Shown in pieces: positions 26,913 through 32,567 of a DNA stretch of 64,000 nt (its first letter is position 1; the number at the start of each line of letters is the position of its first letter). Origin of the DNA: a virus; IMG/VR virus record IMGVR_UViG_3300046758_000611, positions 32,001-96,000 of that record. One strand, given 5' to 3'. The notes under the pieces are model-generated. The model was not told where the DNA came from. It did not search any database and saw only the letters and a program-made list of their open reading frames with translations. A program made the position numbers and the translations under genes.

Positions 26913-29513
26913 TTATGCTCCGTATTTTATCTTACTAAATGAACCTTCTTTTTGAATTTCTACAATTTCATCCACCATATCTCGCATAACATCCAAATGG
27001 CTAATGACTACGATGAACTCAAATTGCCCCTTTAAATAGGTAAATAGATTAAATACACTACTGATGTTATCTCCGTCTAATGTACCCCACCCTTCATCAA
27101 TAACAAGGAAATTAGAACGAGGAAGACTGCTTACATTGATAAGTGCCACACGCATAGCAATACTGCTTATGAATCGTTCCATGCCACTACACATCTCTAA
27201 AGGCCAATGACGATCTTCATAAGTAATCTTTGAGTAAATGTGTTTTCCGTCCATTTCAAGATTCATGCCGAAATCAACGATTTGAGAAAGAATATTATTA
27301 ACCTCACTTTCAATACTAGGAATAGTTTTAGAAATAAGTTCATATGAAATACCATCTCGTTTTACTGCATCAAGATATAGTTCATATCCTCGTTTTTTTC
27401 TTTCATAACTTTTTGCCTCTTCGATAGATGAAAGAACATCTTCGTGTTCTTTTTCAACAATCTTAACTTCACCAAAAAGAGTTTGAAGTTTTTCTGTTTC
27501 TTCATTTGCTATTAAATTCACTTTTGTAAGTTTATTTTGTATATCAGCAACTTCAACTTGTAAAGATTTATTAAATTCAATAATATCTTTACATTCATAA
27601 TATTCGTTGATACTTTTTTCATTTAATAGAATATCCTTTTCAAGTGATTCTATCATACTTGACAATGCAAGAATCTTGGCATCTGTTTGATTTATTTCAT
27701 AAGAAAGTTGTGTATTTTCTGATTTTAAATTATTATACAATTCATAATCACTATCAACATTTTTATATATTTCAAGTTGTTGTTCAAATTCATTTTTTCT
27801 CTTAACAAGTTCATCTGCATCTGCTTTATCTTTATCAAGTTCTTTTTTAGTAATTTCCGCACTTTCTATCAAATTTTTTGAATTAGTAACACAATGCTTA
27901 CAATTAGGATCGTATTCATGACTATCATAATGTTTCAATTTATCAAGTTTAGCATTAACTGATGTTCTTAATACTGCCAAATCTTTATCGACTAAATTTA
28001 TATTTTCACGAATTTTTAAGACATCTACATATTTTTCTTCTATACCGTCAAGTTCAGATATTTTTTTGAATTTTAGTGATTTATCGTTTGATAACTTCTT
28101 CTTTTTATCAGACTCAAGTGAACGATTATCTTTTGCCACATCAAGTCTTTCTTTTAAGTTTGTTTTATTAAATTCTAATTTATCTATATCTACGGATGCT
28201 TCCTCAAATGAGCAATTTTTAAATTGTGCATTTTTGTCTGCCAATTCTTTATTTAGTTTTTTCTGTTTTAATAAAGCAATATTAGTTCTACTATCCTGTT
28301 CATTGTATTGATGTTTAACATCTTCTAATTTTTCTTGAACATTGTTTAATGTTTCATCAAAATCTTCACGATTAAATCTTTTTAAAAGTGCGTTTATTTC
28401 TTTTATATCTTCCGATGCAGTTGTATGTAACTGATCGAACATATCTATTCCCATAAACTGAGCAAGTAAATCTTTTCTCTCACTTTGACTTTTATCTATA
28501 AAAATTGCATTATTATTTTGCAAACTAAGTGTAGTCAAAACAAAATCATCATATGACCCGACATGATCACGTATTACTGCATTGGTTCCTGCTCTTTGTT
28601 CTCCGTTTAGTGAAATTGTTTGACCTTCTTCATCATGTTTCCAGAAATCAACAACAACCGTTACATCTCCGTTCTTTTTAGTAGTTGCAGTTCTTTCTAT
28701 AAAATAATTTACTCCACTTATTTCAAAATTAAGTTTACAGTAAAAATTATCAGTTTGTGTATTCAATACGTGTGCGGCCTTGAATGCACGATCACATTTA
28801 TCAAATAAACAAAAACTCAAAGCACTCATCACACTACTTTTACCACTTGCATTTGAGGCAAATAATCCCATAACACTTTTCATGTTTGAAAAGTCTATTA
28901 TGTTTCCATCTCCGTAACTAAACATATTACCGAATTCAAACTTCTTTGGTTTCCAAATACAATTTCTTAAAACTTCTTTTACTACCAACTTTTCATTTAT
29001 TTCTTTGTTGATATCAAGAGCAGTTTTTACTTGCTCATCATCAACAACAAAATTCCTGCGAAGATAATCTTCTATTAAATCATTTTGAACTTGTATTGTA
29101 GTAATGTCACCGAAATCAAATTTATTATCACGATCATATTTTTTTGCCTCGGAAATTGCATCACAACGAGTTACATTCAAATCACTTATATTTGTTTTCT
29201 TTCGTATATCTGCTATAATTTCTTTAGTTTCAGTTGCAGTAGTATTATATACCTTTACACGAAGTCTTGCTTTTCTTGGTAATAAACTAAGATCACTAAT
29301 ACACTTTCCATCACGAACTACAATTGTATAATATCCATAATCATTGTGAACTTCGTGGTGCGTATGTGTTTGATTATTTAAGTCCCACAAAACATATCCA
29401 TGACCATTTGGTTTTTCACCGTGATTTTGTTGAATCATACTACCAGAATAAACAACAATTGGTTTATTCTTATTGTGTCTTTTTACTTTTATATATGTTT
29501 CTTTATCTTCCAT
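26913..29513 (-). CDS. sbcC: SbcC/Rad50 (gp46-like) ATPase carrying at its N-terminus the C-terminal part of the SbcD/Mre11 nuclease
   Basis: Likely start ATG 29513 (MEDKET); PIVVYSGSMIQQNHGE...GYVLWD (Mre11 C-part); NASGKSS Walker A, LSLQNN Q-loop, CKHC zinc hook, CSGMERF signature, LVIDEG Walker B, ISH. Confidence 0.9.
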   Translation of the reverse strand: MEDKETYIKVKRHNKNKPIVVYSGSMIQQNHGEKPNGHGYVLWDLNNQTHTHHEVHNDYGYYTIVVRDGKCISDLSLLPRKARLRVKVYNTTATETKEIIADIRKKTNISDLNVTRCDAISEAKKYDRDNKFDFGDITTIQVQNDLIEDYLRRNFVVDDEQVKTALDINKEINEKLVVKEVLRNCIWKPKKFEFGNMFSYGDGNIIDFSNMKSVMGLFASNASGKSSVMSALSFCLFDKCDRAFKAAHVLNTQTDNFYCKLNFEISGVNYFIERTATTKKNGDVTVVVDFWKHDEEGQTISLNGEQRAGTNAVIRDHVGSYDDFVLTTLSLQNNNAIFIDKSQSERKDLLAQFMGIDMFDQLHTTASEDIKEINALLKRFNREDFDETLNNVQEKLEDVKHQYNEQDSRTNIALLKQKKLNKELADKNAQFKNCSFEEASVDIDKLEFNKTNLKERLDVAKDNRSLESDKKKKLSNDKSLKFKKISELDGIEEKYVDVLKIRENINLVDKDLAVLRTSVNAKLDKLKHYDSHEYDPNCKHCVTNSKNLIESAEITKKELDKDKADADELVKRKNEFEQQLEIYKNVDSDYELYNNLKSENTQLSYEINQTDAKILALSSMIESLEKDILLNEKSINEYYECKDIIEFNKSLQVEVADIQNKLTKVNLIANEETEKLQTLFGEVKIVEKEHEDVLSSIEEAKSYERKKRGYELYLDAVKRDGISYELISKTIPSIESEVNNILSQIVDFGMNLEMDGKHIYSKITYEDRHWPLEMCSGMERFISSIAMRVALINVSSLPRSNFLVIDEGWGTLDGDNISSVFNLFTYLKGQFEFIVVISHLDVMRDMVDEIVEIQKEGSFSKIKYGA

Positions 29514-30429
29514 GTGTAACAATTTTCAAAATATTTTCACCAACATCTGTGTCACTTAAGAACGGACTGAGGTGCATATGACCTTGGTTCGGAAAGTACA
29601 TATTTGGTCCTAGAAATGGAACTCTATTTTCAAGGTTGTTTAAATCTCCTCCGTTTTGTTGCCAAACAACTCCTTTTGGCCCGAACATCTGGTGAATATA
29701 GTCGGTTGTGATAACAGTTCTGGTGCCCAGAGCAGATGCCATATTTGTAAGACACCCCTCAGAACCAATTACAAAATCACAATTTTTTATTAAACTTGCA
29801 GTAAAAGAAAACTTACTTGTAGAATTAATAGTTGGATATCGTTTAGAAATTGTGTCTTCGAGACCAAGTGCAAATAGAATTACCCTCGGATGATGTTCCA
29901 TGCAATTAATTATATCAAATGTGTTTCTTGTTTTTTGTCCATATCCAGAACCAGTTTCTCCACCGTCTGCGTTATTGTATTCTTCTTCAGTAAATAAGAA
30001 ACTTTTTTTATGCCAATCCATTTGGTATCCGACTTTTATTATATCAGACTTCCAGTCACCTATGTTTTCTAGTTCCTGCATACTTTTTTCAATTGCATAG
30101 TCAAGAATAGTATTTGTAAAAATTTCAAAGGTATCGTCAAAATTTTTTATTTCACATATTTTTTGAAATTGTGAAGTAATTGATTCGTATGGATTTAATG
30201 TGGAGTTGCCAGAAATTAAATTATATACTTTATCGTATACACCCTCGTTTTCCATAAAAAAAACTTTATCTATATACGGATTGCAATTTAATAACTCAAG
30301 TGGTTGTAAATAATTTATATCAAAGTGAATTTCACATAACTTGTTTTGCTTTATTTTTTTAGCAACACTACTTGCAAGTAGAATATCACCAATGTGAATA
30401 TTTCTACATTTTATCAGTATCTTACTCAT
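29503..30429 (-). CDS. GT9 (ADP-heptose:LPS heptosyltransferase)-like glycosyltransferase
   Basis: 308 aa; IGDILLASSV, NPYIDKVF, TASLIKNCDFVIGSEGCLTNMASALGTRTV match the GT9 GT-B pattern. Confidence 0.7.
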   Translation of the reverse strand: MSKILIKCRNIHIGDILLASSVAKKIKQNKLCEIHFDINYLQPLELLNCNPYIDKVFFMENEGVYDKVYNLISGNSTLNPYESITSQFQKICEIKNFDDTFEIFTNTILDYAIEKSMQELENIGDWKSDIIKVGYQMDWHKKSFLFTEEEYNNADGGETGSGYGQKTRNTFDIINCMEHHPRVILFALGLEDTISKRYPTINSTSKFSFTASLIKNCDFVIGSEGCLTNMASALGTRTVITTDYIHQMFGPKGVVWQQNGGDLNNLENRVPFLGPNMYFPNQGHMHLSPFLSDTDVGENILKIVTHGR

Positions 30430-31126
30430 CTGCTATATTCCAACCATCAAGTTTATATTTATCTTGATTGCTTTCTGCTATAAATTTATGTTCAGTTTGA
30501 TATTCCTGTAAAACTTGGTATTTGTGTATATCACCTAACATTACTATGTCATATCCGTCAAACATACCCAAATCAATATCACCACCCATGACCACATACC
30601 CCACGTCTGTGCGACTTCTTTTTACTGCTCCGTGATAAACTGCTATCTTAGTTTTAATTGATTCATCTTTTATGTCAAATCCACGAACATAATTACTCGG
30701 ATCGTCTAATATACTAAAAACACTAACTGCAACATCTCCTATTTTATATAACCCACTATTCTTTAAATAAAAAAGATTTTCATCATCCATCATATCCATT
30801 ATTGGAGATAAAACATCAAGACGGTCAGGATTATTTAAATTACAATCATGGTTTCCTGCAATTACGAGAGTTGGGTGTAGTTTTGAACATTCACGTAAAA
30901 AAGATGATATTTGGTGAATAAGTTCAGGACTCATTTCTGTTTTAGCATGAGCAATATCTCCACCAATAAAAATAATAGCATTATCGTAGTTATCTTCTTT
31001 AACTTGATTATAGAAGTTTTCAAAAACCTGAGAATATTCTGTATGCCTCTTTACATTTCGAATGTGTATATCTGCAAGATGGTATACTTTTTCAATATTT
31101 TTTAAATCTGTTTTTAACTCAAGCAT
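30422..31126 (-). CDS. sbcD: SbcD/Mre11 (gp47-like) metallophosphoesterase, N-terminal fragment
   Basis: 234 aa; HLADIH, GGDIAH, IAGNHD, YHG, LGDIHK; lacks the following YSGS motif, which begins the 26913 ORF. Confidence 0.88.
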   Translation of the reverse strand: MLELKTDLKNIEKVYHLADIHIRNVKRHTEYSQVFENFYNQVKEDNYDNAIIFIGGDIAHAKTEMSPELIHQISSFLRECSKLHPTLVIAGNHDCNLNNPDRLDVLSPIMDMMDDENLFYLKNSGLYKIGDVAVSVFSILDDPSNYVRGFDIKDESIKTKIAVYHGAVKRSRTDVGYVVMGGDIDLGMFDGYDIVMLGDIHKYQVLQEYQTEHKFIAESNQDKYKLDGWNIADE

Positions 31127-32040
31127 AATTTCTGTTTCATCAACTCACCAAAATCAAGTAGTTTGGTATTTTTTATTTTAGTAATCACCCGAAGAAATCC
31201 TACATCAGATGCATCCTCATCTTCCATTTTAACTAATCTAACTTTTATATTTTCCTTCATAAGAGATTCAGACATACTAATTGCATTTTTGTATGCATCA
31301 CTATCCAACACAATCGTAATTTCTTTTACATCGTGTTCTACTAATTTTAATCTTAACTTATTTGGAATGTTTTTACCAAGCAGGGGAATGGCATTTCTTC
31401 TTATCGCCATTGCATCAAAAACTCCTTCGCAAAAAATAATGGGTTCTTCGTAGTTTATTTGATTTTCAAAAACAACTACATCTTTACTAACAGGTGGGTT
31501 TTTGTATTTAAGATATGCAGATCCTGTATAGTCCCTTGCTAGAAAGTAATTTAGTTTGTTGTTGCAATCAAATGACGGAACTATAATACGACCACCGTAA
31601 TCCCCACCCGAACAATATCCTATTTCATATCGTTCCATGTCATATGATTGTATATTTCTTTTTTTCAAATAATTTAATGCCTTAGAGTAATCTAATTCAT
31701 TTCTATAATCACTTAGTTTTTTATATTCATATGGCAATGAAATAAATTGTTGTTCTGCATTTTCAAGTTTGGTATTCTTGGGTAACTTTACTATTTTTGA
31801 CAACTCAGCAAAATAATTATTTGGAACTTGTAATCTTTTAAACAATGAAAATATACTACGACCTTTTGCGTTGGTATCAATCCAACTTTGCCACCTCTGA
31901 GTAACGAGATTTACTGCCAACTTAGGTTTTCTATGATGAGAAAATGGGCATATAAACATAACCTCGTCTTTAGAGACGATTTTACCTGCTCCTAATACTT
32001 TTTGCAAAAGATTAAGAAGTTTTTGTTCGGAAATACCCAC
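31114..32040 (-). CDS. dnaG: DNA primase (DnaG/Toprim)
   Basis: Likely GTG start at 32040; CPFSHHRKPKL, YLKKRNI, RIIVPS, KYKNP, CEGVFDA, VLDSDA, DASD. Confidence 0.88.
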   Translation of the reverse strand: MGISEQKLLNLLQKVLGAGKIVSKDEVMFICPFSHHRKPKLAVNLVTQRWQSWIDTNAKGRSIFSLFKRLQVPNNYFAELSKIVKLPKNTKLENAEQQFISLPYEYKKLSDYRNELDYSKALNYLKKRNIQSYDMERYEIGYCSGGDYGGRIIVPSFDCNNKLNYFLARDYTGSAYLKYKNPPVSKDVVVFENQINYEEPIIFCEGVFDAMAIRRNAIPLLGKNIPNKLRLKLVEHDVKEITIVLDSDAYKNAISMSESLMKENIKVRLVKMEDEDASDVGFLRVITKIKNTKLLDFGELMKQKLCLS

Positions 32041-32567
32041 TATTTTAAAGAATACCAATGATAAAGAGATGCTACTACCGCATCAAGCATATCGTAGTTT
32101 TTTTTATCATAATTATTCTTATTATTATAGTGAACAAACTCGGACAAATCAAGCATTTTTTCAATATTATTTTTTACAAAAGTTTTACTATCCAATCCCT
32201 TTTCTCTACTTTTACCGAATACACTTTTCCGCAAGGTTGAAACATTGACGTGTTCTATTGGTATATTATACAATGCTTCTATTACATAACTTATTACCGC
32301 ATTGCATTTTGCGAGTTTTACAATTGTTTGTTGACTTGTTCTGCCACCACCAAATCCACTTAGTGAATCTTCTACTATTATTATATCAGGTGAATAATCA
32401 ACTTTATCTATACACTCAGCCACATAATGTGCTTTCGATGTTACATCAGTTTGCTTTTTGATATCAACAAAACCAGCAGATACTATTTTAGTTTTAGAAC
32501 TTGAAAAGCAATATCCTACTACTGTAGAACTTATATCAAGTCCCAAACATATATTTGTTTTTTGCAT
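32040..32567 (-). CDS. ruvC: RuvC-like Holliday junction resolvase
   Basis: LGLDISSTVVG, IIVED, KLAKCN, RKSVFG, YDMLDAVV; likely start ATG 32567. Confidence 0.8.
   Translation of the reverse strand: MQKTNICLGLDISSTVVGYCFSSSKTKIVSAGFVDIKKQTDVTSKAHYVAECIDKVDYSPDIIIVEDSLSGFGGGRTSQQTIVKLAKCNAVISYVIEALYNIPIEHVNVSTLRKSVFGKSREKGLDSKTFVKNNIEKMLDLSEFVHYNNKNNYDKKNYDMLDAVVASLYHWYSLK

Follow-up and report, generated by a model that had tools for sequence, protein, structure and literature searches.

How might the two halves of a nuclease find each other when its gene has been cut inside the catalytic domain, and what are the extra peptides that sit at the two cut ends? This question is raised by the Mre11 (SbcD) gene of the virus IMGVR_UViG_3300046758_000611. 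We analyzed positions 32,001-96,000 of this record (64,000 nt, hereafter the window) from a genome contig of 170 kb. Judging from the sequence, two translated genes now encode this protein, with the cut falling in the nuclease domain, after phosphoesterase motif V and before motif VI, and each half bears an additional peptide at the break. Structure models of homologs indicate that these two peptides are parts of a single mini-domain of about 40 residues. The peptide at the end of the first chain is acidic and the one at the start of the second chain is basic, and together they probably help the two chains reassemble. The features concerned, in window coordinates, are:

30425-31126 (stop codon at 30422-30424), minus strand: the N-fragment of Mre11/SbcD, 234 amino acids (Pfam PF00149, E = 8.8e-8; phrog_100).
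30425-30505, minus strand: the N tail, EYQTEHKFIAESNQDKYKLDGWNIADE, residues 208-234 of the N-fragment (27 residues, net charge -4), which is not present in unsplit homologs with short linkers.
26913-29513, minus strand, with its ATG at 29513: the C-fragment, 866 amino acids (phrog_77, E = 9e-43; SMC_N; SbcC Walker B).
29463-29513, minus strand: the C head, MEDKETYIKVKRHNKNK, residues 1-17 of the C-fragment (net charge +3), delimited by alignment with unsplit homologs.

The six metal-binding motifs of Mre11/SbcD are all present and in order. Motifs I-V (DIH, GDIAH, GNHD, YHG, and GDIH) are on the N-fragment and motif VI (QQNHGE) is on the C-fragment. The C-fragment continues from the last core strand and motif VI (PIVVYSGSMIQQNHGE) to the capping domain and then to a Rad50/SbcC ATPase with its coiled coil, and it is colinear with the unsplit protein of Microcystis phage Mel-JY01. 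When we compared the N-fragment to 1.84 billion representative proteins (using phmmer), we found 3188 homologs, most of which are fused Mre11-Rad50 proteins of about 1050 amino acids. Unsplit, single-polypeptide forms are found in Mel-JY01 (1066 amino acids), LR756501, and Thermus phage phiLo. We checked the fold on an unsplit homolog, P0061, rather than on the window's two chains: the AlphaFold2 model of P0061 (residues 1-415) matches Mre11 from P. furiosus, M. jannaschii, and T. maritima, as well as SbcD from E. coli and S. aureus (Foldseek, E = 2e-13 and below, probability 1.00). In this very large phage family, a single-chain fusion is the usual form, and it is without the Rad50-binding helices that Mre11 normally has at its C terminus. 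Our literature search found no papers that describe such single-chain Mre11-Rad50 fusions.

The N tail comes directly after ...GDIHKYQVLQ, and the C head precedes PIVVYSGS...QQNHGE. In unsplit Mre11-Rad50 proteins, only 13-20 residues separate motif V (GDIH) from the Y-x-G-S strand, so about 25-27 plus 17 residues in the window are truly extra. A scan of IMG/VR with the N-fragment alignment, which gave us a contrast set, identified no further split loci: 79 of 80 related loci are unsplit, with linkers of 13-20 residues. Split relatives came from other searches. Seven close relatives (six IMG/VR loci and L024) keep both the tail and the length of 234 amino acids, and a search restricted by length turned up dozens of additional split N-fragments (221-253 amino acids, 45-57% identity). 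Across 94 distinct split N-fragments, the tail has the consensus Q.LQEY.EE..EIDE.EL..YL..GWEI, followed by the stop codon. Since the same type of tail recurs in the close relatives and in these 94 proteins, the extra peptides are not due to chance. The original prediction, that peptides foreign to Mre11 lie at both fracture ends, therefore stands, and its coordinates were right to within one or two bases (30505 instead of 30506, and 29463 instead of 29465). The conservation among homologous split loci that it depended on is also there.

Are the two peptides related to each other? Among the best 150 representatives of the family, 7 are unsplit proteins that are 30-45 residues longer than the others and carry, in one piece, an insert that is colinear with the tail plus the head. 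(These include P0006, P0061, P0015, P0077, P0105, and P0110.) In P0006, which sits near the window's clade, the insert reads ...GW, then about twenty residues, then KPIVVYPGS. We obtained AlphaFold2 models for the Mre11 part of P0061 and P0006, with a mean predicted local distance difference test (pLDDT) of 92.8 and 91.9. Both models place the insert of about 40 residues between the strand of motif V and the strand of motif VI. The insert is predicted to fold as a strand (b1), a two-turn helix, the G-W pair, a second strand (b2), a tight turn, and a third strand (b3), with a local pLDDT of 87-97. Transferred by alignment from these models of unsplit homologs, the elements in the window would be:

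30476-30499, minus strand: predicted strand b1 (QTEHKFIA), residues 215-222, aligned from the P0006 model.
30449-30475, minus strand: predicted helix (ESNQDKYKL), then the conserved G-W, aligned from the AlphaFold2 models.
30425-30439, minus strand: predicted strand b2 (NIADE), truncated where the stop codon falls in the turn of the b2-b3 hairpin (AlphaFold2 and alignment).
29472-29495, minus strand: predicted strand b3 (YIKVKRHN), aligned from residues 243-250 of P0006 and residues 239-246 of P0061.

In all of the split genes that we examined, the break is no more than a few residues away from the b2-b3 turn, and four relatives (L015, L018, L019, and L105) are broken at the same place. In the models, this turn is at the tip of the beta-hairpin that connects motif V to motif VI of the phosphoesterase, a long way from the metal site. 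The N tail would then be b1-helix-b2 and the C head would be b3. It had been proposed that the two ends together make up one mini-domain, with YIKVKR as its missing strand. Both ideas hold up: the mini-domain is contiguous in the unsplit P0006 and P0061, where its predicted fold is confident, and the gene is broken at the turn of the last hairpin. From the topology, we infer that b3 lies between or beside the strands of the N tail. When residues 198-234 of the N-fragment and residues 1-32 of the C-fragment were given to complex prediction, with separate alignments, the score was 0.20 (mark, 0.32), which does not weigh on binding in either direction.

Within the tail, Tyr224, Gly228, and Trp229 are invariant or nearly so (48 sequences). 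The mean pairwise identity is 0.46 for the 25-residue tail and 0.49 for the catalytic core. The 94 distinct N tails have a mean net charge of -5.7, and 98% of them are negative. The C heads are positive in 13 of 13 cases, with a mean of +3.9. In the fused inserts, the corresponding halves are near neutral, and some of these inserts are without the G-W. That the acidic/basic polarity occurs only in the split forms suggests that the peptides were selected to attract each other, and this is our strongest indirect argument. The window's own tail and head carry opposite net charges, as do the assembly tails of the NrdA type in phage Aeh1, and these charges fit with the proposed clasp. Another part of the original prediction did not hold. 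The motif in the tail was said to be repeated in homing-endonuclease-associated regions, but this is not so in this genome: in a search of all six frames of the 170-kb contig with a hidden Markov model of the tail and a regular expression, only this open reading frame (ORF) matched, and there was no second copy.

We think it likely that the tail and head act as a pair that clamps the two Mre11 chains together, and that the pair entered with a homing-endonuclease cassette. A cassette that targets this site would have entered the gene at the end of the hairpin that links motif V to motif VI, and would have brought its coding flanks along or acquired them soon afterwards. The basic b3 head would pair with the acidic b1-helix-b2 tail, aided by charge attraction. 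This pairing would lengthen the core hairpin and assist docking of the second chain, much as the assembly tails of NrdA-a and NrdA-b in Aeh1 and the gp39/gp60 assembly bracket of T4 topoisomerase do for their enzymes. The phosphoesterase sandwich and the six-motif metal site could then re-form, with motif VI and Rad50 on the second chain. Later, the endonuclease gene would have been lost and a glycosyltransferase-like cargo gene would have taken over the gap. Physical pairing, the need for it in assembly, and the origin with the cassette are all steps that we infer. The gap gene overlaps the stop end of the N-fragment gene by 8 nt and the start of the C-fragment gene by 11 nt. Such tight overlaps suggest coupled translation, which would keep the three products translationally linked.

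The gene order on the minus strand is a primase-like gene, the ORF of 234 amino acids, an ORF of 308 amino acids, and the ORF of 866 amino acids. The last three occupy three different frames. The two genes that have not been described yet are:

31114-32058, minus strand: primase-like gene.
29503-30429, minus strand: gap gene, 308 amino acids, glycosyltransferase-like according to the neighborhoods of its homologs (no Pfam family above the threshold).

The gap gene has 113 homologs, all of them unnamed. Its distant relatives sit in gene clusters for glycosyltransferases and sugar modification, so we consider it to be cargo and not an endonuclease. Its close relatives occupy the same gap in Mre11, on contigs of up to 308 kb. 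Dozens of these relatives have 52-95% identity to the gap gene, and there it always lies between the Mre11 halves. Members with about 37% identity are in sugar-biosynthesis clusters on other contigs, which implies a single capture into the gap, after which the gene was retained.

There is no free-standing homing endonuclease between the halves in the window, but relatives do have one at the same site. In some relatives, the gap holds a gene for a Zn-ribbon plus a TnsA-like endonuclease (L001, L106, and L109); in others, it holds a gene for a Zn-ribbon plus a Vsr/DUF559-like endonuclease (L108 and L013). In L015, L018, L019, and L105, the gap is empty, and the stop and start codons overlap or nearly abut. 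In L011, the gap is an AT-rich non-coding spacer of 170 nt (L011:1139-1311), and the C-fragment is preceded by a good ribosome-binding site. This spacer may be what remains of a gap gene that was lost. As the split is maintained even where no selfish gene is present, the enzyme must function as two chains. Another locus, L020, has a gene for a TnsA-like endonuclease plus Zn-ribbon (L020:3528-4535), from the family to which the gap genes in L001, L106, and L109 also belong. This gene is not in the gap but directly upstream of the N-fragment, which suggests that this endonuclease family uses more than one slot around the Mre11 gene.

How are the insert and the split distributed across the family? 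We used IQ-TREE to infer an unrooted tree of the backbone (residue 1 to motif V; 92 rows). Genes with the insert are scattered on it: 31 changes are needed to explain their distribution, which equals the mean for shuffled labels. At least 12 gains or losses of the insert are forced by branches with support of at least 95 (Shimodaira-Hasegawa-like approximate likelihood ratio test, SH-aLRT). Split genes are sister to short-linker genes in several strongly supported pairs (P0017/P0029, P0340/L057, and P0337/P0013 at 100; P0370/P0022 at 96). An earlier tree from FastTree agrees with this scatter. An approximately unbiased (AU) test rejects a single insert-bearing clade (difference in log likelihood of 1194, p = 3.4e-6), for a group that was named after the first tree had been seen. 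The split P0028 and the fused P0061 are close together (support of 97-98), so conversion between the split and fused states needs only small changes. The pattern looks like a presence/absence polymorphism that recombination keeps in motion, as happens in the homing-endonuclease cycle. Distances between tails are weakly correlated with distances between backbones (rho = 0.25, versus a median of 0.45 for blocks of the core), which is suggestive at best, given that the tail has just 25 low-complexity columns.

The idea of assembly peptides is not new. Crona et al. (2010, Nucleic Acids Res 39:1381; PMC3045599) described the oppositely charged tails of NrdA-a and NrdA-b in phage Aeh1, which derive from the insertion of mobE and are essential. 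These tails act when the dimer of heterodimers forms, and not in the formation of the heterodimer. Crona et al. proposed that the tails are an "antidote" that is delivered with the mobile element, and they predicted that others have been overlooked elsewhere and would be hard to find by sequence. The Aeh1 enzyme, an essential one, was broken up by a free-standing homing endonuclease, and, as in the window's family, the split enzyme has oppositely charged terminal tails that are not in unsplit homologs. The Aeh1 system differs in that the enzyme and the tail sequences are different, the polarity is reversed (NrdA-a is basic and NrdA-b is acidic), and it was tested biochemically. Also, a minority of unsplit Mre11-Rad50 homologs carry the fused form, whereas no contiguous, unsplit form of the NrdA tails has been described.

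A second precedent is the topoisomerase II of phage T4. A cryo-electron microscopy study (Nat Commun 2024; PMC11461880) describes an insertion in the TOPRIM domain of gp39/gp60 and calls it an assembly bracket. As cited there, Bonocora et al. (2011) reported that the mobA endonuclease and its flanks move as one cassette. Like the Mre11 insert, the T4 insertion (about 70 amino acids) is shared by the new C terminus of gp39 and the new N terminus of gp60 and is not in unsplit homologs. Unlike it, the T4 insertion is in another enzyme, is larger, comes with a translational bypass of 50 nt, and has a solved structure; for Mre11 the structures are predictions for unsplit homologs.

The split of SbcD itself was noted in 2009. 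In the GOS data from Lake Gatun, Dassa et al. (Nucleic Acids Res 37:2560; PMC2677866) found an intein-less fractured "SbcD-like" locus with a Vsr-like gene in the gap. The upstream ORF has 25 extra residues and the downstream ORF has 9, which are not in other SbcD-like proteins and which were left uninterpreted. Like the window, that locus has a split SbcD/Mre11, extra residues at the fracture, and a gap gene whose end overlaps the downstream ORF. Going by the description, it matches the relatives with a Vsr/DUF559-like gap gene (L108 and L013). It differs from the window in that it is a single locus with a Vsr-like endonuclease, for which no function or fold was given for the extra residues, whereas the window has a glycosyltransferase-like gap gene and a conserved, charge-polarized mini-domain. 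The same authors proposed that the halves of split inteins associate via opposite charges on paired antiparallel strands. In the split inteins of fractured phage genes, two gene halves also flank a free-standing endonuclease gene, but these inteins have the HINT fold, splicing residues, and ligation, while the Mre11 chains would stay non-covalent. What is new here is that the two peptides form one fold, that a fused form exists in nature, the scale of the conservation and of the charge polarity, and the reuse of the gap.

Could the mini-domain instead be a surface insertion that varies between lineages and serves a separate function, for example in binding to DNA, to Rad50, or to a different phage protein? 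Fission would then merely be tolerated in the last loop of the mini-domain, the large interface of the core would hold the halves together, and the tails would add little. This would account for the 7 representatives that carry the insert unsplit and for the compact appendage in the AlphaFold2 models, and the NrdA fragments of Aeh1 form heterodimers without their tails (PMC3045599). Still, we consider it unlikely. All of the breaks found at this site are in genes with the insert (8 of 15 such representatives are split, versus 0 of 79 short-linker loci), the strong polarity of charge is confined to split forms, and both the G-W and the charges are partly lost in unsplit forms. The scatter on the tree also resembles that of a mobile element and not of an old domain. 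Another thought is that the tails are neutral leftovers, with the N tail reading through to the first stop codon and the C head filling the space from a usable start codon to the conserved strand. Junk extensions are expected right after a gene-breaking insertion, and in the window's clade the head starts variably, with acidic residues (MEDKE, MDEVKE, or MDEPK). But the N-fragment has a fixed length of 234 amino acids in this clade, and the pattern of the tail is conserved across backbones that are only about 45% identical, which already contradicts this idea. Within the clade, every pair for which the ratio of nonsynonymous to synonymous substitution rates (dN/dS) is defined gives a value below 1 for the tail (0.01-0.66, with 0.03-0.14 for the core), and these figures are approximate, given the saturation of dS and a tail of just 27 codons. 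Together with the confident predicted fold of the contiguous form and the systematic bias in charge, this makes neutral leftovers highly improbable.

It is extremely improbable that the tails are remnants of a split intein or flanks of a self-splicing intron, so that the product would be rejoined covalently or the RNA spliced. Inteins do enter this family (between GNHD and C in P0010 and P0082, and as a split intein at the P-loop of Rad50 in L105), and Crona et al. raised such an origin for the NrdA tails (PMC3045599). However, 27 plus 17 residues is far below the size of the HINT fold (about 130 amino acids or more). The tail starts with Glu and not with Cys or Ser; the head has no conserved His-Asn plus nucleophile, and is followed by Pro-Ile-Val; no intein family from Pfam matched; and the insert is retained in mature unsplit relatives. 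We rejected the intein on size and on residues, as the original prediction of a non-intein clasp had supposed. The overlaps of 8 and 11 nt leave no room for a ribozyme core, so neither a group I nor a group II intron fits, and a search of Rfam (with E up to 1) found no intron and one chance match to a small RNA. Given this and the three overlapping ORFs in three different frames, we rejected the intron as well.

Our explanation, in which the tail and head clamp the two chains and arrived with a cassette, has points that weigh against it. These include the roughness of the dN/dS values and the late naming of the group for the AU test. The word "clasp" may be too simple, by analogy with the tails of Aeh1 NrdA, which are needed for a later step and not for the heterodimer. 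Because the mini-domain also occurs in unsplit proteins, its role could be unrelated to splitting. The tails are no more alike than the backbones are (0.46 versus 0.49), when a greater likeness would have pointed to their recent horizontal spread, and an unrooted tree cannot tell gain by homing from repeated loss.

A bolder version is possible, if rather doubtful: the tail and head would form a self-sufficient, portable heterodimerization module of about 40 residues, which the cassette carries as an antidote at the protein level. If this is true, then the cassette splits any Mre11-Rad50 gene in which it lands and supplies the clasp at once. The same pair would also hold other split proteins together, as a compact, non-covalent alternative to split inteins. 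As it stands, comparative data and structure predictions from about a hundred lineages support the view that endonuclease cassettes can neutralize the damage from splitting an essential gene by means of paired assembly peptides. The case is unusually clear in that there is one small fold, the fused form is found in nature, the charges are polarized only upon splitting, and the gap is reused. The class of mechanism is unchanged, and the pair is short enough to merit a trial as a tag for split proteins.

Other mobile elements have also reached this family. In L105 (JGI 3300075147, a contig of 301 kb), Mre11-Rad50 is in three pieces (L105:5226-9512). One break is the split at the clasp, without a gap gene. 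In addition, the P-loop of Rad50 is broken at GKC by an apparent split intein, and the next piece begins with a match to Intein_splicing/HINT. The Rad50 halves are separated by an endonuclease-like ORF of 395 amino acids. This is a classic "fractured gene" whose host protein was not listed by Dassa et al. Two other proteins, P0010 (551 amino acids) and P0082 (545 amino acids; L020:4501-6138), contain a full intein at that GNHD site (motif III), with a LAGLIDADG-like block. These N-fragments also end in the acidic clasp tail, so that one nuclease domain bears two different mobile elements. Finally, in P0377 (292 amino acids), the N-terminal part of Mre11 continues, shortly past motif V, into a peptide deformylase (Pfam PF01327). 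Either the assembly is chimeric here, or this hairpin has received another gene.

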